A stretch of 64,000 bases of DNA from a virus. Under the pieces are notes generated by a model. That model made no database searches and was not told where the DNA came from. It saw only the letters and a list, made by a program, of their open reading frames with translations. Every line of letters starts with the position of its first letter. The first letter of the stretch is position 1. This document shows, one piece after another, positions 3,246 through 28,669 of this stretch. Both the position numbers and the translations under genes were made by a program. The stretch is from positions 21,554-85,553 of IMG/VR virus record IMGVR_UViG_3300044974_000700; one strand, written 5' to 3'.

Positions 3246-3410
3246 ATGGATTACAAAGACGGTTTTGAAGACGGAGTTAAGTTTACTCGTGAAGTCATCA
3301 TTGCTAATATTCGTAAATGGGCTGAGGATTCTATTCTTGGAGAAGAAGGAGCAATTATGGATAGCATTGCAGATAAAATCGAATTTGGGACATTAGACAA
3401 TGACCTCTGA
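3246..3410 (+). CDS. hypothetical protein
   Basis: AAGGAGG RBS before MDYKDG. Confidence 0.6.
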   Translation: MDYKDGFEDGVKFTREVIIANIRKWAEDSILGEEGAIMDSIADKIEFGTLDNDL

Positions 3411-3621
3411 GGATCTTACAATAGAATGGATTAAATGTGATTCTTGCTCTGCCCGTGCAGCTTGGGTTGCACGTGGTACTAGTGGTGAGCTTACATTTTG
3501 TGGACACCATTTAAATAAGAATAAGCAGGCCCTTGACAGTTGGGCCTATGAAATTATAGAATTGGGTAAAGAAGAACTACCTAAAAAACAAACTAGACGA
3601 AAGGCGGTACAAAATGGGTGA
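3400..3621 (+). CDS. small Zn-finger-like protein (CxxC...CxHH)
   Basis: CDSC and CGHH motifs. Confidence 0.6.
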   Translation: MTSEDLTIEWIKCDSCSARAAWVARGTSGELTFCGHHLNKNKQALDSWAYEIIELGKEELPKKQTRRKAVQNG

Positions 3622-4018
3622 CAGAGCAAACTTTGTATTTGTTCAACCAAGCGGAGAAACCATTGTTTTATACGGACACTGGGCAGGACATGGCATGTTA
3701 GAAAAATTAGGTGAGGCTGTAGCAAAAGCACAGCCACGCTGGACGGACCCTTCATATGCTACACGAATTGCTATCAGTCAAATGATTGGCGACGGATGGG
3801 GCATGGAAACTGGATGGGGCCTGCAGGTCAATGAGATATCTGATAATGAGCACAAGATTCCTGTGATTAATTGGATAGACCAAACAATGTCTCTGCATGA
3901 AGAGGATTCATTCTATAACGAATCTAATAAGGTCCGTGGAATGAAGAACGACGCTATATTTACCATGGACTTGAGAACGTTTGTAGAGAAATACACAGAC
4001 GCCAAGATTTTGGTATAA
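3614..4018 (+). CDS. conserved-looking hypothetical phage protein (MGDRAN...LYGHWAG)
   Basis: GAAAGG RBS, overlapping operon structure. Confidence 0.7.
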   Translation: MGDRANFVFVQPSGETIVLYGHWAGHGMLEKLGEAVAKAQPRWTDPSYATRIAISQMIGDGWGMETGWGLQVNEISDNEHKIPVINWIDQTMSLHEEDSFYNESNKVRGMKNDAIFTMDLRTFVEKYTDAKILV

Positions 4019-4020
4019 TA

Positions 4021-4149
4021 TTAATAATGAGGTGCCGCTACTAGCGATTCCGCAAGTGGTTAACTAAAGCAGCGTTTACTTAAATTCCTTTCGTTTGGCT
4101 AGCAGCCTCATGTTAATAGGGCCCCTGGAATCCAGGGGCCCTTCCTTTT
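4021..4149 (+). ncRNA. candidate sRNA with exposed anti-Shine-Dalgarno (UUCCUUUCGUU)
   Basis: extended -10 TGGTATAAT 4011-4019; outer stem 4021-4035/4102-4116; terminator 4118-4149; only ORF is the 5-codon MRCRY. Confidence 0.5.
4118..4149 (+). terminator. intrinsic terminator
   Basis: AGGGCCCCTGG-AAT-CCAGGGGCCCT then TCCTTTT. Confidence 0.75.
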
Positions 4150-4288
4150 GCCCGTAGTTTGTGAGGGTAGCAAAAGCTTGTTACGTTGTCAAGCCAAAAT
4201 CCCCTAAAATTGTGAGGTTTTGATCACAAACCTTACACTACATGTGAGGTTTATCATATAGACATTTGTCAGTGGGTGGATGTATAAT
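4150..4288 (+). promoter_or_regulatory. early cassette 4
   Basis: GCCCG 4150, TTACG 4181; TGTGA-N6-TCATA 4243-4258; TAGACA(4259)-N18-TATAAT(4283) with TGTCAGTG. Confidence 0.7.
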
Positions 4289-4313
4289 AATGCCAATAAC
4301 GAAAGGAAATAAT

Positions 4314-5063
4314 ATGCCAAACTGGGTATATAACGGATTAACTATAGAGGGAAATCCACAATTAGTCAATACATTGGTAGCACAATTAAATAAGCCATTT
4401 GTTCAAGTTCATGATTCATGGAACATGGAAAATGGTCAAATGGAAAAAAAGCAAACTACATATCCTAATCCTGTATTTGCATTTCATAATATCTATAATC
4501 ATTTACAAGCAAGTATTACTGAATATGAATATCTTCAGCAACCCGACCATAAATTACCAATTGCAGAACAAATGAAATTTGCAACAAATGATTGGTATTC
4601 ATTTAATGTTCGTGAATGGGGAACAAAATGGGATGTTGCTGTATCTTCAGATAATGAATATCCTGATACATATATTGAAGGACCTACTCCTAATGGAGAG
4701 AATCTAGTTGTATATTATAATTTTAATACTGCTTGGTCTCCACCGTTCCCTGCCCTTGCAAAATTATCTGCACAATATCCAGCATTACTACTTACACTTA
4801 GTTATGAAGAAGAAACAGGTTGGGGTGGTGAATGTGAATTCCTACGTGGTGAAATGATATCTAATTCAGAATATGAAAGCATGTGTCGTGATTGTGAAGC
4901 AACAGATACATTAGATTATTGTGAGAATGACTGTGGCCAAATCTGTTCTAAATGTAATTGGCTTGGGGAGGCAGACCTAGAATGTGTCAAAGAATGTCAG
5001 ACCCATAAGATATACTTGGATTCCGAGCATGTCCCTGATTATAGAATGGAGCAAATCAAATGA
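4314..5063 (+). CDS. DUF1281/YubB-like ferredoxin-fold protein with Cys-rich C-terminus
   Basis: MPNWVYN start, WGTKWD, FNTAWSPP, YEEETG motifs; AACGAAAGGAA RBS. Confidence 0.75.
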   Translation: MPNWVYNGLTIEGNPQLVNTLVAQLNKPFVQVHDSWNMENGQMEKKQTTYPNPVFAFHNIYNHLQASITEYEYLQQPDHKLPIAEQMKFATNDWYSFNVREWGTKWDVAVSSDNEYPDTYIEGPTPNGENLVVYYNFNTAWSPPFPALAKLSAQYPALLLTLSYEEETGWGGECEFLRGEMISNSEYESMCRDCEATDTLDYCENDCGQICSKCNWLGEADLECVKECQTHKIYLDSEHVPDYRMEQIK

Positions 5064-5641: not shown

Positions 5642-5913
5642 TGTACACAACTGAACTACCAGACAATCTACAGAAACTTGTCGACATGAACATCCCTGGA
5701 ACCGATATCTTGCACGGTGAACTTAAGTGGCTAATGAAAGAGGCCGAAGAGCAACTGGAGTTGGCACAGGAGGCAGAGAACAAGACTGGCGAAGCCATGG
5801 ATTCCATGGACCGCAAATATTGGGAGGGACAGTTAGACGCTCTCTCACATGTATATGCATTAACATACCAATTAGCATTTGCAATAGACGAAAGGACAAA
5901 AGCACGTGGCTGA
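5641..5913 (+). CDS. hypothetical protein
   Basis: MYTTELP..., YWEGQLDAL motif. Confidence 0.6.
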   Translation: MYTTELPDNLQKLVDMNIPGTDILHGELKWLMKEAEEQLELAQEAENKTGEAMDSMDRKYWEGQLDALSHVYALTYQLAFAIDERTKARG

Positions 5914-18335: not shown

Positions 18336-19484
18336 TTACTTTACTAAAGTAACTTTAGCCTTTGGATTCTTTGCATTCCATTGGCGAGCCAATTTATTAA
18401 AAGCATCCTTTAGGGATTTAATTGCTGCTGCATTATCTGCAGTTAGCTTAGCAATTTGTGCATCTTTAGCGGCGATGGTATCTGCAGCGACCTTAGCGGC
18501 AGCAGCGGCTTTATCAACCTCTGCCTTTACAGCAGCAGCCTTATCAGCATCTGCGGCGGCCTTAGCGGCAGCAGCATCTGCGGCGGCCTTAGCGGCAGCA
18601 GTAGCAGCATCTGATACTGCCTTAGAAAGGGCTGCATCTACGGCAGCCTTAGCGGCAACTGCAGCGTCCTTGGCAGCCTTTTCAGCAGCGAGTTCGCCAA
18701 GCAAATCACGCACTGTAATTGTCTTTACTACGCTTGAAGTTACAGTATTGAAACCTGTTACAACAGTTGCAACATCAGATGAATTTGTAACAGATACAAC
18801 AAGAGTCGAAGAACCAGTTGCTGGAAGAGTTACCTTGAAATCTGCCTGACCAAAATTAGTTAGAGTAGATCCTGTAGTTGCAGTTGTTGTATCAAGAGTT
18901 CCTCCAACAACAAGTGCTGTTAGTCCTTTGCTTGAAACCTTATTTCCAAATACGTCGGTTGCGGTTACTGTTGCAGTAACAACACTTGATGTTGTTCCAG
19001 CATCAGCAGCAGAGAGGGAAAGAGTATTAATCTTACCTGCTACGCCCTGTACATAATATGTTAATGTTGTTCCTTGGTTAGTAATTACTACTGAACCAAT
19101 TGCTGTCGTTTTAGTATATACATAAAACGTTGCTGTTGTTCCTGTACCTGTAGCAATTGTCAAAGATGAAGATCCTGACGATGCTGATACTGGAGCAGCA
19201 GATGTATGTAGTGCAGAAACAATTGTTGCGTTGGTTGCTACAATAGAAACTGATGTTCCCGTATCAACTGTTGCGACAAATTTTAATGCATCTGTTGCAT
19301 CTACTGTGTTATCAGCAGGCACTGGCAATGCAGCGGGTGTAGCAATAGCGGATGCTGTTGTATTAGCGGTTCCGTTAAGGTCTACAGCGACTGTCATTAC
19401 AGCAGCACTTGCAGGTGTTGCTACGATTGTTGCGGTAGTCATGGCTGCAACCATGGCTAGAGCGATTTTCTTAAATGATTTCAT
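18336..19484 (-). CDS. secreted Thr/Ala-rich Ig-like surface protein with Ala/Lys coiled-coil tail
   Basis: signal peptide MKSFKKIALAMVAA..ASA; TDVFGN; AAKAAAD repeats; strong AAGGAG RBS. Confidence 0.75.
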   Translation of the reverse strand: MKSFKKIALAMVAAMTTATIVATPASAAVMTVAVDLNGTANTTASAIATPAALPVPADNTVDATDALKFVATVDTGTSVSIVATNATIVSALHTSAAPVSASSGSSSLTIATGTGTTATFYVYTKTTAIGSVVITNQGTTLTYYVQGVAGKINTLSLSAADAGTTSSVVTATVTATDVFGNKVSSKGLTALVVGGTLDTTTATTGSTLTNFGQADFKVTLPATGSSTLVVSVTNSSDVATVVTGFNTVTSSVVKTITVRDLLGELAAEKAAKDAAVAAKAAVDAALSKAVSDAATAAAKAAADAAAAKAAADADKAAAVKAEVDKAAAAAKVAADTIAAKDAQIAKLTADNAAAIKSLKDAFNKLARQWNAKNPKAKVTLVK

Positions 19485-19534
19485 TTAATTTATTTCTCCT
19501 TATATACTCTGATTCTAAATTGTGAATCAGAATT

Positions 19535-19705
19535 CTATTCTAATTCCCATATTCTTACGTGAAAAGAACATGGGTCTCCGCCTTGATCCCATTCTTGGGA
19601 CTCTTGATCTGTTAATGGTGGTCCATCATGAGTATTACAAAATACATCTGATATCCATCCATTATCATAACCAAACTTTATCCAGTTATCGAAATCTAAA
19701 TCCAT
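19535..19705 (-). CDS. small hypothetical protein (56 aa)
   Basis: manual translation GWISDVFCNTHDG..GGDPC. Confidence 0.55.
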   Translation of the reverse strand: MDLDFDNWIKFGYDNGWISDVFCNTHDGPPLTDQESQEWDQGGDPCSFHVRIWELE

Positions 19706-19998
19706 TCTTTGACTTCTTCCATCATTATATGTTTTGGTTTTGCCCCGACAATTCTTTTAACGGGATTACCGTCTTTAAAAAGTATAGTAGTTGGAATACT
19801 TGTTACTTCATATTCCACAGGTTTTACTATTTCATTGTCAACATTTATTTTGCCTAACCATATACCAGTTTCTTGTGAAACTTCTTCTATGATTGGACTA
19901 AACATTTTACATGGCCTACACCACTCCGCCCAAAAGTCTATCATTATGAGCTTATGAGCTTTGACAACTTCTTCAAAATTATCATCAGTTACTATCAT
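19696..19998 (-). CDS. trxA: thioredoxin
   Basis: DFWAEWCRPCK, SIPT, VGAKPK. Confidence 0.9.
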   Translation of the reverse strand: MIVTDDNFEEVVKAHKLIMIDFWAEWCRPCKMFSPIIEEVSQETGIWLGKINVDNEIVKPVEYEVTSIPTTILFKDGNPVKRIVGAKPKHIMMEEVKEWI

Positions 19999-20468
19999 AC
20001 AGACTCCACGTGGGTTGGCCAGTAATAATTGCAAGAACCGCAGCAAGTATACCCTAGCTGCTTATAGTCTGCAAACTCTGAATAAAAATAATACCTATCA
20101 GGGTCTTTTTCATATAGCCGACCTTTATGTGAATAATGTAGGCTTTCATTGCCTAGCCACCAGGGTGTGTCTGATTCTAATCCCATAAAATTATTTTGAT
20201 ATATTTCATCAAACTGTACGTGGGTAGTATTTTTATAACCACGCAATAGTATCTCTTTTACTATAGATTCGTTATAAAGAAAAAGGAAGTCTTCGTGGCC
20301 TTTCCACATTTTAACTGCTGGATGATTACGCCAAGCACCAGTTTCTCCATATAATCCCGCCAGAGATTTAAGTATTTGTAAGTTTTCTACACTTTGCTTT
20401 ATCAAACGCTTTCGATCAAGATGCTTAGCTGTTTTTGCAAAGTCACGATGTGGTAAAAAAGTTTGCAT
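19995..20468 (-). CDS. pyrimidine-dimer DNA glycosylase-like (MSMEG_6728 family)
   Basis: MQTFLP, LDRKRL.KQ.VE, W.NHPAVKMW.G, PWWLG, SH. Confidence 0.75.
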   Translation of the reverse strand: MQTFLPHRDFAKTAKHLDRKRLIKQSVENLQILKSLAGLYGETGAWRNHPAVKMWKGHEDFLFLYNESIVKEILLRGYKNTTHVQFDEIYQNNFMGLESDTPWWLGNESLHYSHKGRLYEKDPDRYYFYSEFADYKQLGYTCCGSCNYYWPTHVESV

Positions 20469-20486
20469 GTGTCTATTCTACTAAAT

Positions 20487-20512
20487 AGCAGGGGGTTGGT
20501 CAACCCCCTGCT
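20487..20512. terminator. hairpin terminator
   Basis: AGCAGGGGGTTG-GT-CAACCCCCTGCT. Confidence 0.7.
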
Positions 20513-20520
20513 TTAATTAA

Positions 20521-21495
20521 CTAGTTAGTTATTGCTTTATCCGAATTCAAAAGAATGCCATTTATCTTTAAAATTGGGTTAGTTATTGGAGTTGATGTTT
20601 TCTTAATTAAATCAAGTAGTTGAGATTGAGTTAATCCTGTTTTATAACTTGAAATTGCAAGCCACTTAGCTGCTGCAATTTGTGTAGAAATAGAAGTTCC
20701 AAATCCATTACCTTCAGATCCGCCAGGAAAGTTGATTCTTGAAGAAATAGGAGCCCAAAAATCTATTAGATTCTTGTCGTAGTTACTTGTTGAAGAAACA
20801 TAAAATCCTGATGATCCAAAATCTTCTGCACCGCCAACTGCAATTGATGAAGGTATACATGCAGGCCAATCGATTCTACTGTAATCTCTTCCGTTTCCTG
20901 CTGGGAAAAATACAGCAATATTTGATTTAACAAGCCAATCAACCCAATAATCTGTTTGTGTTACTGGACAATAGTTTGTTGAATTTAACAAATTATGATG
21001 TCCCTGTGACATTGAAACTGCTTTAATGTTGTATTTTGCTTGGTTGTCATAAATCCATTTTAAAGCATTTGGTACAGTATTTATAGTTGTGCTTTGTCTT
21101 GTTCCATTAGGATTGTGCCCAATAATTCGAATAAATAAAATATTCATGTTTGGATTATTTCTTATTGCAGCAGAAACCATTTGAGTACCGTGACTAAAAT
21201 CACGATTACTAAGTATTGTCATTGGCAAAACTGAAGCGCCTGGCCCCTCCATAAATAAAGAACTATTTGGACAAGAAGGCTTTTCTCCACGACGAATTTG
21301 AGATTGAGATAAGTCTAAAATGCAAACTTCTCCAATCAACTTTTCTTTAATTGATGGGATTGATGTATCTAGAGCTGTATCTAGTACCGCCAGCGTAGGC
21401 AGTGTTAATGTTTTATTTTTTAGACCTGCTGAATTTGCAGGTGATATTGTGATTAGTAGTAGTGTGGCCACTATAGCCGTTATTAGTTTTTTCAT
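20521..21495 (-). CDS. secreted S8 (subtilisin-like) peptidase
   Basis: signal peptide; AVLDT, HGTQM, AGN, GTS triad. Confidence 0.8.
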   Translation of the reverse strand: MKKLITAIVATLLLITISPANSAGLKNKTLTLPTLAVLDTALDTSIPSIKEKLIGEVCILDLSQSQIRRGEKPSCPNSSLFMEGPGASVLPMTILSNRDFSHGTQMVSAAIRNNPNMNILFIRIIGHNPNGTRQSTTINTVPNALKWIYDNQAKYNIKAVSMSQGHHNLLNSTNYCPVTQTDYWVDWLVKSNIAVFFPAGNGRDYSRIDWPACIPSSIAVGGAEDFGSSGFYVSSTSNYDKNLIDFWAPISSRINFPGGSEGNGFGTSISTQIAAAKWLAISSYKTGLTQSQLLDLIKKTSTPITNPILKINGILLNSDKAITN

Positions 21496-21501
21496 ATGTG
21501 T

Positions 21502-21530
21502 ATTCTACTAAATTAGTACGGCAATGTCAA
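21502..21530 (-). promoter_or_regulatory. sigmaA promoter giving leaderless mRNA
   Basis: TTGACA-N17-TAGAAT-N6-ATG. Confidence 0.75.
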
Positions 21531-21533
21531 TAG

Positions 21534-21701
21534 TTATTGTTGTGGTGGCAATCTTCTTGGGTACCATTTACCAGAATCCATGTTTTGCTGGGACTTGTTT
21601 TCCGATAAAATACCACTTAAAATTTCATGGATTAAATCTAATTCAATTCTAAGCTTGTATAATTCTAATTCAAGCATATTAATTTTTTGCGACTTTCTCA
21701 T
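21534..21701 (-). CDS. small hypothetical protein (55 aa)
   Basis: manual translation, ATGA overlap. Confidence 0.5.
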   Translation of the reverse strand: MRKSQKINMLELELYKLRIELDLIHEILSGILSENKSQQNMDSGKWYPRRLPPQQ

Positions 21702-21922
21702 TCCGATCCATCTCTATCTAAAGGCGTTGGAGCCGTTGCTAGTGTGCCACAATTGGCACACTCCATATCTAAAAAATAACTTGCAATTTCAAAGTTATAA
21801 AAAATTACTTTTAAGTTAAAAATGTCACATCCACAAGGACAAACATGAGTTGGTACACCACGAAGATCCATAGCCTTTGTATAATCAGGCCTTAAATCGT
21901 TTATATCACGTGGCTCTTCCAT
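21698..21922 (-). CDS. Zn-ribbon protein
   Basis: HVCPCGC...CANCG. Confidence 0.7.
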   Translation of the reverse strand: MEEPRDINDLRPDYTKAMDLRGVPTHVCPCGCDIFNLKVIFYNFEIASYFLDMECANCGTLATAPTPLDRDGSE

Positions 21923-21936
21923 TAATTAATTATATC

Positions 21937-22503
21937 CTATACCTCTATAATTGTAAAGGGGCCTCTTACACTCATTATAAACTTAGATGCCGCTTCTAGA
22001 GCCATTCTAACACGTTTGCGAGGAGTTTTAATTGTAGTTGTAGAGGCCAGAGATCCAAGCGCTACCTGCTGCCCACTTCCTTCTGCATAATAATCTGTAT
22101 TTAATTCAGAAACATGGTAATCGACATCCATAGTAAATATTCTTCCAGTATTCTGTACTGCTATTATTATGATACCGCCTTCATCACCATCTTCTGTATT
22201 GTTTCCAAATCTTCCAAACCCATGTTCTTGATACACTTCTTTAATAGACTCTACAAACTTAGTACGCATAAACTTATCTAAGTTTTTAAAGCCTGCAGTT
22301 GGCTTATATATTGGCGGAGTCCAGTTGTATTGTAGTATCTGACCCATTCTAAAACTTTCTACAAACCCTATCCCAAACTGACCAACTTTAAAAACTTTTG
22401 GATCAGTTGTTTGAAGTATTAATCCACTTTTTTCTTCCGATGCTGCGGAGTCTCCTCCAAGCACTACTTTATTCCCAACAGATAGGGCAACTATACAGGT
22501 CAT
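21937..22503 (-). CDS. HslV/proteasome-beta-like Ntn hydrolase
   Basis: MTCIVA N-terminal Thr, GGDS, KVF, GSG..ALG; leaderless promoter fixes the start. Confidence 0.75.
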   Translation of the reverse strand: MTCIVALSVGNKVVLGGDSAASEEKSGLILQTTDPKVFKVGQFGIGFVESFRMGQILQYNWTPPIYKPTAGFKNLDKFMRTKFVESIKEVYQEHGFGRFGNNTEDGDEGGIIIIAVQNTGRIFTMDVDYHVSELNTDYYAEGSGQQVALGSLASTTTIKTPRKRVRMALEAASKFIMSVRGPFTIIEV

Positions 22504-22516
22504 ATAACCTATTGTA

Positions 22517-22840
22517 CTATTTATAAAATTCGGAGTCCATGTCCTCATGCATTTCAATATGGCTGAGCTGGCTTAAAGCATTTTCTAATTCGGCTTTAAG
22601 CCCAATTAATTCCTGAATGGCATTATAATATTTGTCTTTCCATTCGGTTAATTCCTTTTCTAATTTATATAGGTCTATTTTTAGGTCTTTTATCTCTAAT
22701 TTAAGATGGTCTTTTTCCCGTTCTTCCCGCCTAATTTTTTCTTTTTTAGAGTCCCTGAAGCCAGCTACTATGGCTGTACCCATACCGCTAAGAATTGCTG
22801 CCAAAAGAGACAGTACCAATGTCACATAATTGATTTCCAT
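22517..22840 (-). CDS. membrane-anchored coiled-coil protein
   Basis: N-terminal TM plus heptads. Confidence 0.65.
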   Translation of the reverse strand: MEINYVTLVLSLLAAILSGMGTAIVAGFRDSKKEKIRREEREKDHLKLEIKDLKIDLYKLEKELTEWKDKYYNAIQELIGLKAELENALSQLSHIEMHEDMDSEFYK

Positions 22841-22870
22841 TATATAGACAATTATACAGCAAAATTACAT

Positions 22871-23107
22871 TTAAACTAATAGTTCTGATGCGGTTATTTC
22901 TTGACCAATATATCTTTTCTTTTGAATTACTTCTTTTACGAATTCATGACCGCTTGATCTGCCAGCCAAAATTATAACCCAGCGTGGTTCGTATTTTGAG
23001 TCTATGCAGGTCTGACACATAAATAAATTAATTGGCATTAAGGTTGATTGCTTAACAGATAATTTATTTTTTGTTTTATTGCATGAATAGCAAAGTATTT
23101 TTTCCAT
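22871..23107 (-). CDS. Zn-finger hypothetical protein
   Basis: CYSC..CQTC. Confidence 0.65.
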   Translation of the reverse strand: MEKILCYSCNKTKNKLSVKQSTLMPINLFMCQTCIDSKYEPRWVIILAGRSSGHEFVKEVIQKKRYIGQEITASELLV

Positions 23108-23248
23108 TATTCCTCTTCTATGAAGGTGAGATCTTCATTTTCAATATCTTCATATTGAATTTTACCATCTTTAAAATATCTAACTTTTGACATAAATAAA
23201 CCTATGGAGATGGCTTCTCCATAAAGATTTTCAGAATGTATTAACACT

Positions 23249-23566
23249 CTAACCGATTCCTTTTGCACTTGGTACCCCTTCAAGTTCGCATCTTACTCCG
23301 TAGGACTCTATCATCTTTTTTACTCTTGTAACATAATCTATAACTTGTTCTTTTTTACTTCCAGTAAACTGTATAAAGTTATCTTCATATAATCTTAAAG
23401 CTAGGAATTCTGGATATTTAACAACATCCATTTCCAAAAGAAGCGGCTTGTTCATTTCCCTAAGCCTTTTTCTCATCTCTTCGTTGTAAAACACTGGCTT
23501 GTTAGGTTCACCAGTCCAAAGATTAACGCCATGCTTAAAATGGTTTTTATCGTTATTAGATACCAT
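23249..23566 (-). CDS. hypothetical protein
   Basis: ORF in operon. Confidence 0.65.
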   Translation of the reverse strand: MVSNNDKNHFKHGVNLWTGEPNKPVFYNEEMRKRLREMNKPLLLEMDVVKYPEFLALRLYEDNFIQFTGSKKEQVIDYVTRVKKMIESYGVRCELEGVPSAKGIG

Positions 23567-23867
23567 TTTTTTTGTTAATCTGCTTCCAAATTTCTTTTGT
23601 TTTATGAGTATTTCTCATTTTATCTACTCCGCCTGCATTTAAATAAATACCGCCCCATACTCCGTATTCATTGTTTTCTATTCCAGACTGATAACACATA
23701 TCTATTACTGGGCAAGACAAACAACACTGATCTATATTGGCTGCTATTTTGGGATCAAGTTCGTACTTATCAAAAAATAAATTTGTATCCATTCCTTGAC
23801 ATGCTGCTAGATGCCACCAATTGAGATTGTCTTCGTCTGTGTTTAAATCATTTAAAATATTTGACAT
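23556..23867 (-). CDS. whiB: WhiB-family Fe-S transcription factor
   Basis: AAC...FF...C..CPV...C and GVWGG turn. Confidence 0.9.
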   Translation of the reverse strand: MSNILNDLNTDEDNLNWWHLAACQGMDTNLFFDKYELDPKIAANIDQCCLSCPVIDMCYQSGIENNEYGVWGGIYLNAGGVDKMRNTHKTKEIWKQINKKNGI

Positions 23868-24081
23868 ATTTTGGCGGAAGTATCCAAGTTCCTTTAAAGC
23901 TAATGGGAATTTTGTTTGCTATTCCCCAGCTATTATTTCTAAATACACCATTTGTATTTGAATACCCGCCTATATTTTTTTTCCATATAATAAATGTATA
24001 GTTGTCCCAATAGGTTTCTATATCTTTATTAGATATTTTTTTTCTGAGTATTTCTACTCCATGTTCATTTAAGTGTAACAT
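23848..24081 (-). CDS. hypothetical protein
   Basis: WDNY..W...G..R.N.WG motif; operon with whiB. Confidence 0.6.
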   Translation of the reverse strand: MLHLNEHGVEILRKKISNKDIETYWDNYTFIIWKKNIGGYSNTNGVFRNNSWGIANKIPISFKGTWILPPKYVKYFK

Positions 24082-24114
24082 TAGTCCAATTTGTACTTTT
24101 TGAACCTATATAAT

Positions 24115-24144
24115 ATTATACAGGAAATTGACAGGTGTTGTCAA
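24115..24144 (-). promoter_or_regulatory. promoter of whiB operon with palindromic -35
   Basis: TTGACA-N5-TGTCAA palindrome 24128-24144; TATAAT 18 nt downstream. Confidence 0.65.
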
Positions 24145-24770
24145 CCATTTGGAGGAAGAATCATTTGCCAGTGGTGGGTTATAAGCATTTTTCTGCCTTT
24201 TGTAACTTCCATAGATTGGTGAGTATATGGCAATGCAGAAGGGTACATTATTATACTTCCAGCCTCTGGCTTTATTTTAATATCTAGGTCATTAAAATAA
24301 AGTTCTCCACCCTCATAATCATCATTTAAATAAACTACAATCGTATATGCTAGGTAGTAATTGTCTTCGTTAAAATCTACATGTGCTCCCATAAATGCTT
24401 TTTCGTCATATTTATTTATGCCCATAGTTGTTCTTGGATCAGTCAATAATGATACAGCATAATATAAAGCTTTTCTGTCTATATTAAATATGTCTGCATA
24501 TTTAATCATACATTCAGACATTTTATTAGTTAAATTATTTATTGCATATGAAGTTTTAGCTCTATCTTCATCAGAATTTATATAAACAATTTTATCTCTT
24601 TTAACATGTTTTATTTCGCCATATCTAGAGCTGCTGCCATGTCCATTCCAAGGCTCCCAATCACTCATTGCATCATTAGATATAGATTCTATAATATCAA
24701 TTATTTCTTGATAATTATTTATAGCACCCTTAAAATAAATTATTTTTTCTTCTGGTTGTTCAAAATACAA
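24141..24770 (-). CDS. prolyl-4-hydroxylase-like 2OG-Fe(II) oxygenase
   Basis: HVD, YLNDDYEGGELYF, PEAGS, HQS..V..G.K. Confidence 0.8.
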   Translation of the reverse strand: MYFEQPEEKIIYFKGAINNYQEIIDIIESISNDAMSDWEPWNGHGSSSRYGEIKHVKRDKIVYINSDEDRAKTSYAINNLTNKMSECMIKYADIFNIDRKALYYAVSLLTDPRTTMGINKYDEKAFMGAHVDFNEDNYYLAYTIVVYLNDDYEGGELYFNDLDIKIKPEAGSIIMYPSALPYTHQSMEVTKGRKMLITHHWQMILPPNG

Positions 24771-24914
24771 TTATTTTTCCTTAACATTAATTATCTTGAC
24801 TAATTTTATTTCTTCGTCAATACCAAATATATCTGATATATATTCTCTTGCATCCTCTTCATTAAATGCTTCAACTTCTGCACTTATTTCTAACTTGATG
24901 CTGTACTTATTCAT
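24771..24914 (-). CDS. small hypothetical protein (47 aa)
   Basis: TAATG coupling; EVEAFNEEDA. Confidence 0.5.
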   Translation of the reverse strand: MNKYSIKLEISAEVEAFNEEDAREYISDIFGIDEEIKLVKIINVKEK

Positions 24915-25456
24915 TATGCTTTAAATTTGGGACGACCAAATCCTACTATAGAAATCATTACGCCTTTTTTATTCTTTTTAAAGGCACGAAGTTGCTTACA
25001 TGCTTCTCCGCCATTTCTCTGGCTACCCTTTTTATTTGAAGAAGTATTTCCCTCAATACACCATACAGTTCCGTCTTCATTGTCTTCAATAACAATCCCT
25101 ACGTGAGAAATTCTATCAACGCCATCTGATGGGAAATCAAAATAAGCTATATCTCCTGGCTCTGGGTCTGCCAAATCTCCATCAATCCATGCGCCCTTCT
25201 TTTTAAATGCCGCAGCTCCTGCTGGAGTATAAACTGTATTTGGAACTTTTACTCCTGCTTCATTAGCGCACCACATTACAAAAGATCCACACCATGGCTG
25301 GAAATTAGATTTTGTAAAAGCACCATACTTTGTTTCATTATCTTTTGGACCTTCAATATAACCAACTTGAGATTTTGCTACCTGAATTAAACGTTTTGCG
25401 CTTCCTACAGGAGCCTTATCTGTTACTGGTGGAACTGAAAATTCGTTATTAGACAT
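24914..25456 (-). CDS. CHAP-domain endolysin
   Basis: PWCGSFV, PGDIAYFD, HVGIV, IEGNT. Confidence 0.85.
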   Translation of the reverse strand: MSNNEFSVPPVTDKAPVGSAKRLIQVAKSQVGYIEGPKDNETKYGAFTKSNFQPWCGSFVMWCANEAGVKVPNTVYTPAGAAAFKKKGAWIDGDLADPEPGDIAYFDFPSDGVDRISHVGIVIEDNEDGTVWCIEGNTSSNKKGSQRNGGEACKQLRAFKKNKKGVMISIVGFGRPKFKA

Positions 25457-25458
25457 TG

Positions 25459-25719
25459 TTATCTCCCAAATACTCTAAATATTTTTTTGACTTTAGGAAC
25501 ACAATTAGGAACTTTTTTTCCACCTTTATTCTTCCAGCCAATTTGCTCATAGCCATCCCAACATGGGTTGGCTTTGTTAACTTCACTTGCGTATAAAGCT
25601 CTAAGTTGTGCTTTCGCTTTAGTTTCACTATCGTGGCATCCAACTAACTCATTAGTGCCTTCTTTTACTACTGCATATCCTCTGCAGCCAGAAGCTCCCT
25701 GTTTAATTTGCCAAGGCAT
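25459..25719 (-). CDS. hypothetical protein
   Basis: GCH..A.AQ.RAL and PCWDGYEQIG..VPNCVP motifs. Confidence 0.65.
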   Translation of the reverse strand: MPWQIKQGASGCRGYAVVKEGTNELVGCHDSETKAKAQLRALYASEVNKANPCWDGYEQIGWKNKGGKKVPNCVPKVKKIFRVFGR

Positions 25720-26165
25720 TAGTCTTTATCCCAATCTTCATCTACTGAATGTTCTGCTGGCACTTGTCCATCTGGCTTAGCTGCAAGACGAGCTCTTACT
25801 GCATCTAGTTCAGCATCAAGTTTATCTTCTGCCATTTTAATTTCAGATTCAAGTTTTTTATCTGCCTGTGTATTTTTAGCATCTATCTCTTTGTTGTCCA
25901 TCTGTGCCTTCATAATATCTTTAGCACCTGATTGTCCAATTAACAAACCAGCAAGGGTTCCTGTAATAAATGTAGCTACGCTACCAAGAACGTTAAAAAA
26001 CATTTTGTCATTTTCAGATTGTGCACCAATTGGCTGGGACACAAATAATAATCCATAAAGGATTCCAACTGATGTGAGTAATAAAATTGTTCCAAGGGTT
26101 AGACCAAGAATAAATTTTAATCTTGCATCTAAGTCTGCTGGAGTTAGTCTTTCTCTTTTAGCCAT
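25719..26165 (-). CDS. two-TM membrane protein (holin-like candidate)
   Basis: two hydrophobic helices near the endolysin. Confidence 0.55.
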   Translation of the reverse strand: MAKRERLTPADLDARLKFILGLTLGTILLLTSVGILYGLLFVSQPIGAQSENDKMFFNVLGSVATFITGTLAGLLIGQSGAKDIMKAQMDNKEIDAKNTQADKKLESEIKMAEDKLDAELDAVRARLAAKPDGQVPAEHSVDEDWDKD

Positions 26166-26396: not shown

Positions 26397-26591
26397 TTAC
26401 TCTTCTTTTCTTAAAGGGATAGTGGCAAGCCAAATAACTGTAGCAATTAATGTTGCAATTCCTACCACCTGTTGGGCCGTGCCAGTAAGGGTTAGCCAGG
26501 CAATAAAAAAGCCAAGAAGGGTGAATATTTGAGCTATGCTCTCTTTAATAACTTCCCAGGCATAATTAAATATAGCTTTTATTATTTTCAT
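26397..26591 (-). CDS. small two-TM protein
   Basis: hydrophobic helices, TAATG coupling. Confidence 0.65.
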   Translation of the reverse strand: MKIIKAIFNYAWEVIKESIAQIFTLLGFFIAWLTLTGTAQQVVGIATLIATVIWLATIPLRKEE

Positions 26592-28669
26592 TATATCCTC
26601 CTAATCATGGCTGCTGCCACGATATTACTTGCAATAATTACTGGCACAATTACTTCTTGTGCCTTTTCTCTTTGGTCATCTGTCATATCTTTACCCCACT
26701 CTGAAGGGCTTAGAACTTTACTTAAATCTATATCTAATACTGCCCCTATTGGATCCTCTAAAAATGCTTCTGTTTGAACCTCAGTTGTAGCATCAGCTAA
26801 AGTATAGGGCATTGTTGCATTTTCTGCTGCCGCCTCTCTATCTTTAAATTCTACAAATGCTGTTGCTAATTCTGGATTAGATTTCATAGCCTCAGCAATT
26901 ACCGCAACTTCTGATGCTTTAATTCCTAAACCTTGTGCTACTTCTACTTTTGCTTCTTGAGTTAACGCAACAAGAGTTTGGCTGACTGCAGCAATTTGTT
27001 CTGTAGACAATACAACTAGTTTATTATCTTTGCTTGTTAAATTAGCTATAACCCCAGAGAGATCTTCTGCAGTACCTGTCCCTTTTTCTGGAATTAATTC
27101 TTTTAATTCTTCATCAATTATGATATTATTATCTTGTGATTCTTCAAAAGGTTCAGTCGGAGTTGGCTTTGGTTCAGGAGTTGGCTCTGGATCTATATCC
27201 GTTGGCTGAGGTGAAGGCTCTAATGAGGGCTCAGGAGTGGGCTCAGGGTCAACAGTTGGTTCTGGCTTCGGTTCATCTGTGGTTTCAGGCGTTGGCTCAG
27301 GAGTGGGACCAACTGGTTCTGTTTGCTCAGGAGATGGCTCAGGACTAGGACTAGGTTCTGGTGATGGCTCTGGTTCTGGACTAGGTTCTGGTGATGGCTC
27401 TGGTTCTGGACTTGCAGCAGGTGTTGGTTGATTTGCTGCAGCGGCAGCAGCTTGTGCTAAGGCAATAGCAATTTCCCTAGCCATTTGCTCTTCATAATAT
27501 AACCATGCATTATCTATTGCATCATTTAAATCAATAATTGATTGATCATAGGCTTCAATATAATTATTTTTATCAATTAAAGCATTTGCTGTATTTGTTA
27601 CAGCAGTATCATATGCAGTAATCTTATTTGTTAATGTTTGATTATATGTAGTTAATGTAGAGTTTTCTGTATTGTATATGGAAAGCTTGTTATTATACTC
27701 TGTTTGTGCCGCCGATTGTGCGGTTACTGCTGCATTGTATGCATCAATTTGTGACTGTGTTGCACCTACACCATAAGAAAATGTATTTAAATTACAACTA
27801 AATCCTACACCCCAGCCTCCAGTATAGTCACATCCTGCTCCAGTCCACCCACCAGGGATTGCCCATCCAAGATGAAAGTAGCCTGGTCCTCCGCCGTTAT
27901 ACCACCAAATTTCTACATCTAATGTTTTGTCTTGGCTTACGTTATAAACTGGAGAATATTCACTCCATGATGATCCTTTTTCTACCCATTCATCAATTGC
28001 AAGTTGTCCGTCTATATACATTCTAAATCCATCATCTGTATACCCAGCAAAGTAGGTGGTGGTCCAATGAGAAGGGACCGTAATCTTTCCAGTAAATTTA
28101 ACTATAAAGTCTTCATATCTACCGCATACTGGTGGCTGCATTGAATTTGAATTCCAGACTCCAGTACATAGAACACCGCTTGGAATTGCAACTCCGCCAA
28201 ACCCTCTTGTAAGATAATATACTGTATATTGTAACCCAGAATTACCAGCATTTTGAACTGTTAATTGAGTTGTTTGAACATTAAGATTTGCTATATCTAA
28301 CGCATCTTGTGCGTCATTTTTATTTTCTAGTGCCGTAGCAACTGTAACAGTATGTCCATCTACCGCTGATTGAGCTAAATTCTTTTCTTCTAATGCTGTT
28401 GCCTCTGCTGCTACCGCCACATCATATGCATCATAGGCATCATCTCTAGCCTCTTTTGCAGCTACTGCATCATCATATTTGTCTTCTGCAATATCTATTA
28501 ATGATATAAATTCGTCCTTATAATTTAAATCAGATACGCTTTCGTTTAATTTTTGTATTTCTTGGGCGGCTAAACTTAATGGGTCATCACTATAAGCAGG
28601 TGTTAAGAACAGCCAACCAAAGCCTAAAATGGCGGCTAATGATAATCTCCATAATTTAGTCCTAGTCAA
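26591..28669 (-). CDS. secreted PA14-domain protein with Pro/Glu/Thr linker and C-terminal membrane anchor
   Basis: signal peptide; [24 protein letters not shown]; PEPSPE repeats. Confidence 0.8.
27348..27412. repeat. 30-bp tandem duplication in Pro-rich linker
   Basis: GGACTAGGTTCTGGTGATGGCTCTGGTTCT x2. Confidence 0.8.

Follow-up and report, generated by a model that had tools for sequence, protein, structure and literature searches.

The DNA analysed here (the window; 64,000 nucleotides, nt) comprises positions 21554-85553 of an 85.5-kb IMG/VR viral contig with a G+C content of ~35%. At 4021-4149 on the + strand, the window appears to encode a small non-coding RNA of ~130 nt, which begins 3 nt past the stop codon of a gene that we call up134. 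The evidence is computational throughout. In window coordinates, the RNA gene is composed of the following parts.

4011-4019, + strand: extended -10 box TGGTATAAT, the presumed own promoter of the RNA, overlapping the up134 stop codon (4016-4018)
4021-4033, + strand: 5' arm of helix P1; 4027-4033 is the part conserved family-wide, and 4021-4026 lengthens the stem in this phage
4034-4060, + strand: P2 hairpin, with outer helix 4034-4039/4055-4060, inner helix 4044-4046/4051-4053 and loop AUUC
4061-4068, + strand: junction J2/3, UAACUAAA (family consensus UAAGUAAN), unpaired and almost invariant in alignments A1 and A2
4069-4103, + strand: P3 hairpin, with stem 4069-4073 pairing with 4098-4100 and 4102-4103 around one bulged A
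4074-4097, + strand: P3 loop, 24 nt
4084-4095, + strand: loop segment ATTCCTTTCGTT, the reach of the complementarity in this phage
4088-4095, + strand: loop core CUUUCGUU, invariant, the complement of AACGAAAG
4105-4116, + strand: 3' arm of P1; the family-wide pairing joins 4027-4033 with 4105-4111, and the outer stem of this phage joins 4021-4032 with 4106-4116
4118-4149, + strand: intrinsic terminator, with a stem at 4118-4142 of 11 pairs (9 G-C), a 3-nt loop and a U-rich tail

The consensus promoter scan identifies TACACA-16-TATAAT with an upstream TG at the TGGTATAAT box. P1 and the terminator do not overlap, and a separate promoter at 4259-4288 serves the next gene. The predicted fold of the 134-nt RNA has an energy of -49.9 kcal/mol (z = -4.0), which 0 of 200 shuffled sequences match. 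It places the segment ATTCCTTTCGTT in a hairpin loop, and the computed cost of opening this loop is ~1.6 kcal/mol. The promoter box, outer stem, loop segment and terminator all lie where an earlier, first-pass annotation of this DNA had put them. Two of the checks that it named, exposure of the loop and covarying stems around an invariant loop core in relatives (below), bear it out. Its single inner arm (4036-4074) in fact consists of two helices, P2 and the 5' side of P3. The pentapeptide open reading frame (ORF) that it noted at the 5' end, MRCRY, exists and is not conserved, with an ATG in 2/53 aligned relatives (the window itself and L003).

The element has no counterpart in Rfam. Searched against Rfam at the gathering score, the whole window gives no family match for it; at E-values up to 10, the region 3950-4250 gives nothing but terminator-like chance matches, and no riboswitch or ribozyme family. 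The 6C family is absent from both searches, and the loops of the RNA are not C-runs. ARAGORN and the Rfam tRNA model place no transfer RNA (tRNA) or transfer-messenger RNA at 4021-4116; all seven tRNAs of the window lie at 32.8-34.7 kb. No description of this RNA was found in the literature (supplementary files aside).

Directly past the terminator, window 4150-4260 holds a conserved DNA segment of several parts (GCCCGCAA..., GAGGGTA..., TTACG..., GTCAA...) that is kept in most relatives. This is probably an operator or promoter-region element that lies outside the RNA.

For the comparative analysis, 126 IMG/VR loci were collected around homologues of two flanking genes (58 + 68), and the RNA core (80 nt) was located in them by an iterated nhmmer search. 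These loci are related to one another and are not independent. The core is present in 82/126 loci as 52 distinct sequences, and RNAalifold together with pair counting yields a three-way junction of P1, P2 and P3. In alignment A2, 95.6% of pair cells contain standard pairs, versus 79.0% in shuffles. The covariation score of 0.419 (0.132 in shuffles) is reached by 0/500 shuffled alignments, and slid registers score 0.098 at most. Both sides have changed in 4/7 pairs of P1, which also contains one invariant U.G pair, and in 3/5 pairs of P3; P2 is paired in 99.6% of A2 cells through G.U, U.G, C-G and A-U exchanges. A further IMG/VR sample of 80 loci was drawn by motif scan (at least 120 stretches), with the motif as part of the search pattern. 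Among the matches listed, 77/80 of these viral loci fit the covariance model at 61-90 bits. Alignment A4, which is fitted to the model, gives the same pair statistics as A2, with P2 paired in 100% of cells. The model finds one copy in the window.

The strand can be read from the same pairs. The RNA folds about equally well as its minus-strand complement, but the invariant U.G of P1 and the frequent G.U and U.G pairs of P2 would be A-C mismatches there, and the RNA is therefore read from the + strand. Together with the covariation, these pairs support the proposal of a conserved, putatively discrete small-RNA gene on this strand. Two further structural ideas were discarded. A pseudoknot between J2/3 and the P3 loop, suggested by eye from alignment A1, fails at the AAGUAA/UUAUUU and AAAUAA/UUACUU variants, which do not compensate. 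A possible likeness of P2 and J2/3 to the helix-45 region of 16S ribosomal RNA (16S) was dropped, as the positions covary within the family and the likeness would hold for a subset at most.

The flanking signals are also conserved. Of 105 distinct relatives, 81 have a perfect TATAAT in the 60 nt upstream of P1, and 6 others have one that matches at 5 of 6 positions. The box takes one of two positions: ~2-5 nt ahead of the model start, which is the arrangement in the window, or ~25-37 nt ahead, in which case an additional 5' hairpin separates the two. By a crude criterion (a hairpin of -10 kcal/mol or stronger and a T run within 80 nt downstream), a terminator is present in 81/105 distinct relatives. 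Bacterial genomes contain 61 pattern matches, three of which pass the covariance model, all on ~3-kb contigs of metagenome-assembled genomes (MAGs). These contigs (L146, L169 and L194) are binned as Bacteroidia, Polynucleobacter and "bacterium"; they are most likely misbinned phage contigs, and their labels are unusable as host calls. Given that only these three inconsistently labelled contigs were recovered from bacteria, the search points to no chromosomal location, and the RNA is a phage RNA.

The host is likely an actinobacterium, judging from a WhiB-family gene, DnaE kinship and the source of matching DNA. The WhiB-family gene lies at window 23646-23819 (- strand, 47.1 bits), and the family matches only Corynebacterium among 14 control genomes; WhiB-family genes are a marker of phages of Actinobacteria. 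In the phage GenBank collection, the contig DnaE is nearest to those of Streptomyces phages (~56% identity), and lake and freshwater metagenomes contain DNA near-identical to the contig. DnaE alone gave relatives in that collection: window 3400-4700 has no DNA match there by megablast or blastn, and ORF 26591-28669 has no tblastn match. The genomes in which the RNA family occurs appear to be large (~110-116 kb) uncultured lake phages of Actinobacteria.

The loop core points to a specific set of partners. In the contig, 11 + strand genes have CGAAAGG ahead of their start codon; all are located at contig positions 18883-27442 in one 9-kb module, and the sequence AACGAAAGG is found in 8/11 of these leaders. 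Elsewhere in the 85.5 kb, CGAAAG stands ahead of no convincing gene start. On the minus strand no start codon follows the motif, just as the first reading had it, and its list of matches to ribosome-binding sites (RBSs) is correct. The match to the loop is 12 nt long for the start at 2562, 11 nt for 4314, 9 nt for 462 and 5906, and 8 nt for 1372 and 3614; it is partial for 6570 (7 nt) and 6818 (6 nt). The predicted target leaders are the following.

447-455, + strand: AGCGAAAGG, before the gene starting at 462
2547-2558, + strand: AACGAAAGGAAT, before the gene starting at 2562; 12-nt match
3596-3604, + strand: GACGAAAGG, before up134 itself (start 3614)
4298-4308, + strand: AACGAAAGGAA, before the gene starting at 4314 (DUF1281_C domain); 11-nt match
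5887-5895, + strand: GACGAAAGG, before the gene starting at 5906

The sequence ACGAAAGG occurs 5 times in the window versus 0.93 expected, a count reached by 0/100 shuffles. The signal for AACGAAAG alone is weaker, with 4 occurrences versus 1.32 expected, and 4/100 shuffles reach 4. Both contig strands were scanned for duplex energy (34,210 windows, mean -4.5 kcal/mol, standard deviation 2.6); of the 29 best non-self sites, 11 are module leaders, with energies between -14.5 and -19.2 kcal/mol. We note that the RBS regions TAGACGGAGAGGAA... (~36765) and TAGACGGAATGGAAA... (~35025) on the minus strand give duplexes of -18.2 and -17.5 kcal/mol with G.U pairs allowed; it is possible that these sites are off-module targets or chance matches.

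Every module gene (contig 18850-25850, window -2700 to 4290, + strand) is preceded by a TGTCRGTG-N8-TATAAT-type promoter, whose -10 box is 8 to 17 nt away from the leader motif. This variable spacing rules out the AAC extension of the leaders as a transcription-start effect. In some relatives, the RNA gene itself has a similar GTCAAC-N9/10-TATAAT box.

Two classes of Shine-Dalgarno (SD) sequence coexist in this phage. Genes of the + strand module have GAAAGG(A), complementary to the extreme 3' end of 16S, and those on the minus strand mostly have AGGAG or GGAG. With crude start calling, GAAAGG is found in 10/11 module ORFs of at least 100 amino acids versus 2/57 minus-strand ORFs; the latter have GGAG in 20 cases and AGGA in 19. 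The minus-strand genes are thus largely of another SD flavour, as had been proposed. The 16S 3' end reads ...CCTCCTTTCT in 149/150 of the matches listed, from a sample of 301 genomes of the phylum of an actinobacterial MAG; the tally, which includes genomes flagged unpublished, agrees with the end given by the first-pass annotation. From this end it follows that AGAAAGG fits the ribosome best. CGAAAGG would lose one 16S pair and gain a pair with the G of the RNA loop. The loop CC, partner of the GG of the SD sequence, is missing in 25/59 non-redundant relatives (19 AC and 6 UC). Specificity would lie in the AAC-C extension, which is carried only by the leaders of the phage's own module.

The relatives repeat this arrangement. 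The loop core CUUUCGUU is present in 59/59 non-redundant loci. Five relatives (110-116.5 kb, 97-100% complete) contain 8-13 same-strand AACGAAAG matches within a single stretch of 9-12 kb, where the sole opposite-strand match is the RNA gene; the remaining ~100 kb of each genome has 0-3 matches. Among 186 leader sites from the 59 loci, the two bases before CGAAAG, which pair with the invariant UU of the loop, are A in 146/186 and 173/186, and the next base further out is A in only ~30%. On the other side of the core, UUCC loops accompany GGAA leaders (G at the first flank in 89/92, A at the second in 77/92). CGAAAGA leaders are commoner with loops that have U before the core (10/26 versus 2/92), and loops with A before the core stay mismatched to their leaders.

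Some lineages carry other RNAs behind distant up134 homologues. Type B retains P1, P2 and the junction, and its P3 is a short hairpin with the loop AGUGUGG. The type B RNAs of L077 and L061 have UUCCUUUCG as the loop of P2, and the motif is thus found in another loop. Types C and D are different hairpin-rich, terminator-ended RNAs; type D has a P2-like hairpin behind a TATAAT box. The phages of both types use A(C/U)AGAAAGG leaders.

L077:5236-5308, L061:2701-2773 and L096:5453-5524: type B RNAs
L064, L069, L076, L091, L093, L098, L107 and L135, first ~150 nt past the up134 homologue: type C
L097, L112, L113 and L121, first ~150 nt past the up134 homologue: type D

The leaders change with the RNA. 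With gene starts called crudely, the density of AACGAAAG leaders per 10 kb is 3.61 for type A loci, which have the RNA described above (161 in 446.5 kb), and 2.86 for motif-bearing type B loci, versus 0 for L096, 0.2 for type C and 0 for type D. The base before GAAAG at the RBS is C in 163/270 sites of type A and 7/14 of type B, versus 1/57 of type C (A in 36) and 1/11 of type D. Pooled, this is 170/284 for types A and B versus 2/68 for types C and D (Fisher 7e-20, kinship ignored). Lineages whose RNA is without the motif use AGAAAGG in place of CGAAAGG.

Weak hints of transcription come from metatranscriptomes. Contigs from three runs, derived from relatives 90-95% identical, run from up134 into the element (spans 3929-4098, 3744-4074 and 3851-4037). 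They weakly suggest that the region is transcribed and are compatible with read-through from up134. Among contigs from four metatranscriptome runs, bins 4092-4259 are almost uncovered in every run, which, for relatives' contigs, is no proof of termination. In the aquatic metatranscriptome X15, contigs of relatives at window 3336-3923 reach a summed word depth of up to ~200, far over the neighbouring bins; contig depth is a poor gauge of expression.

On balance, we consider it probable that the element acts in trans as an antisense RNA, blocking the leader that genes of its own module have in common; this module is presumably an early one. The three-way junction and the terminator would present the 24-nt loop as part of a discrete RNA species, and in vivo the loop core CUUUCGUU would pair with the leader AACGAAAG(G), overlapping the SD sequence GAAAGG(A) of 8-13 genes in the one-strand, multi-promoter module to which the RNA itself belongs. 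This pairing would keep the 30S subunit off the leaders and might invite cleavage by RNase. As the stable RNA accumulates, translation of the whole module would be turned down together, and genes on the other strand, with their mostly AGGAG-type sites, would be spared. We infer repression because the pairing overlaps the SD site, and the early character of the module because its numerous small genes have sigma-70-like promoters and run on the other strand from the remainder of the genome. The exposed loop and its complementarity to RBS leaders of the surrounding + strand genes, the starting point of the first-pass annotation, are well supported and are retained in this model; the early-to-late switch that it proposed is a candidate role.

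Several observations weigh against such a role. A number of off-module sites score equally well in the duplex scan. The match extends over only ~8-11 nt in 25/59 lineages, and the distal flank is without covariation (M3/N3 pair in 19/59 and 48/125, near mismatched alternatives). The type B RNA of L096 has another P2 loop and lacks the motif, yet two of its leaders are CGAAAGG. The RNA shares the module, and in some relatives the promoter type, with its proposed targets, and any switch must therefore hinge on accumulation. The RNA-library contigs belong to relatives, cannot tell strand or ends, and could include DNA. The cross-lineage statistics ignore shared ancestry, gene starts are crude, and one sample was selected by the motif. 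Finally, the nucleotides of the junction are conserved to the same degree as the loop, and a plain antisense role leaves this unexplained.

The gene upstream of the RNA is the following.

3614-4018, + strand: up134, 134 amino acids, acidic, isoelectric point (pI) 4.96; always immediately upstream of the RNA

The protein matches PHROG phrog_31860, of unknown function, and no family or solved structure is matched in Pfam, in sequence and profile searches of the PDB, or in the protein atlas. A homologue of up134 ends 9-91 nt before the RNA in 82/82 RNA-bearing loci, including those in which the downstream gene has a different location. Conversely, the RNA is present in 56/56 of the loci found through up134 that do not break off directly behind this gene. 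The fixed neighbour and the invariant junction constitute the main unexplained point, and may hint at a protein partner. A ribonucleoprotein guide, in which the junction binds up134 and the loop steers the complex to the module leaders for repression, cleavage or some other action, seems rather unlikely to us, though it survives best among the alternatives. It would account for the constant association of gene and RNA, for the 12 invariant residues of up134 across 33 sequences alongside the invariant junction, and for the hairpin-rich RNAs of other types that follow distant up134 homologues. However, up134 is acidic and has no recognisable RNA-binding or nuclease domain, and the adjacency could be mere synteny or co-transcription. 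Extended across the family, and with the same low chance of being right, the idea is that RNA and protein form a phage RNA-guided complex. The early module would have evolved a private AAC-C "address", with a recognition loop that co-evolves and can move between loops of the scaffold; sister lineages would use the same protein with other RNAs (types C and D) and other addresses.

It is also unlikely, somewhat more so, that the complementarity is incidental and the element is a structured RNA of another kind: a stabiliser or processing signal in the 3' untranslated region of up134, a sponge for proteins, or a riboswitch or ribozyme of an unrecognised type. An antisense RNA would not usually need so conserved a scaffold, and the library contigs bridge up134 and an element that starts 3 nt past its stop codon. 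Nevertheless, the invariant core exactly complements a motif that is restricted, in six genomes, to the same module, recurs in another loop in type B, and co-occurs with the leader variant across lineages. The TATAAT box in 81/105 relatives and the lack of an Rfam riboswitch or ribozyme also speak against this explanation, as does the separate promoter of the next gene beyond the terminator.

The resemblance of the loop to the 16S 3' end raises the question of mimicry. The first-pass annotation viewed the RNA as a mimic of the 16S anti-SD sequence, and this part of its proposal finds no support: what is invariant is CUUUCGUU, in which G-U-U differs from the 16S tail ...CCUCCUUUCU, and CC is absent in 25/59 lineages. 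The rRNA-cutting toxins of abortive-infection systems exist, and a UCCUUUC-like loop could act as a decoy that soaks up a factor recognising the anti-SD sequence, for instance such a toxin, a ribosomal protein or an initiation protein. In 34/59 lineages, CCUUUC is common to the loop and the nearly uniform 16S end, and RNA mimics are used by phages against abortive infection, according to excerpts of PMC3594212. We nonetheless hold a decoy to be very unlikely, given that the other 25/59 lineages read ACUUUCG or UCUUUCG in place of the 16S-like CC, and that it leaves unexplained both the AAC-C extension of the leaders and its loss where the motif is absent. Least credible is the general shut-off of host translation by silencing of GAAAGGA-site messenger RNAs (mRNAs), also part of the first-pass annotation: the loop of this phage, AUUCCUUUCGUU, would pair with any GAAAGGAAU-type site, but without the AAC-C extension the match drops to 5-7 nt, the conserved complementarity is to the phage's private extension, and, with CC absent from 25/59 lineages and invariant letters that differ from the 16S end, shut-off is unlikely to be the conserved function.

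The antisense reading has precedents. The closest known system by mechanism appears to be c4, a folded RNA of 77 nt from phages P1 and P7. Sequences in its loops bind around the RBS of the target and block translation (excerpts of PMC12197685). Both RNAs are phage-encoded and trans-acting (here by prediction), measure ~77-130 nt, and have a fold that puts complementary sequences in loops; loops complementary to a target near the RBS are found here as the loop core and the module leaders. The c4 RNA controls a single antirepressor operon in the immunity region of temperate enterobacterial phages, whereas the RNA reported here matches 8-13 separately promoted genes in large actinophages and folds as a three-way junction. 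The Rfam C4 model gives no match in the whole window at the gathering score or in 3950-4250 at E-values up to 10, and the resemblance would be one of mechanism and not of descent.

The loops of staphylococcal RsaE-type small RNAs (sRNAs) pair with Shine-Dalgarno regions. Like base-pairing sRNAs in general, the RNA has an accessible, conserved seed (59/59 loci) directed against several mRNAs (11 leaders here, 8-13 per relative). The actinobacterial 6C sRNA is a Gram-positive example that binds several mRNAs via pyrimidine-rich hairpin loops (PMC6486639, in part). In comparison with 6C, the loop here is a fixed 8-mer and not a C-run, reaches past the SD sequence into a phage-specific extension, and is phage-encoded. 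Functionally, the proposed role recalls the endoribonuclease RegB and the translational repressor RegA of T4, proteins that inactivate early mRNAs via the RBS, as stated in portions of PMC1702504 and PMC3014915. In both cases a phage product would recognise a short motif at the RBS and thereby inactivate numerous early mRNAs of the same phage; the T4 factors are proteins, whereas the recogniser here would be an RNA loop acting by base pairing.

If the proposed role is correct, this RNA would be an RNA counterpart of RegA and RegB, with one sRNA addressing separately promoted genes via a private extension of their RBSs. It would provide a regulon-scale case beside the few known phage antisense RNAs, which are mostly controllers of single genes. 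The repressor and leader would form a compact, portable pair, and the match between them would give a simple sequence rule to find co-regulated genes in uncultured phage genomes. In a large and abundant group of lake phages, whose hosts are among the commonest freshwater bacteria, the RNA and its sites would have evolved in step.

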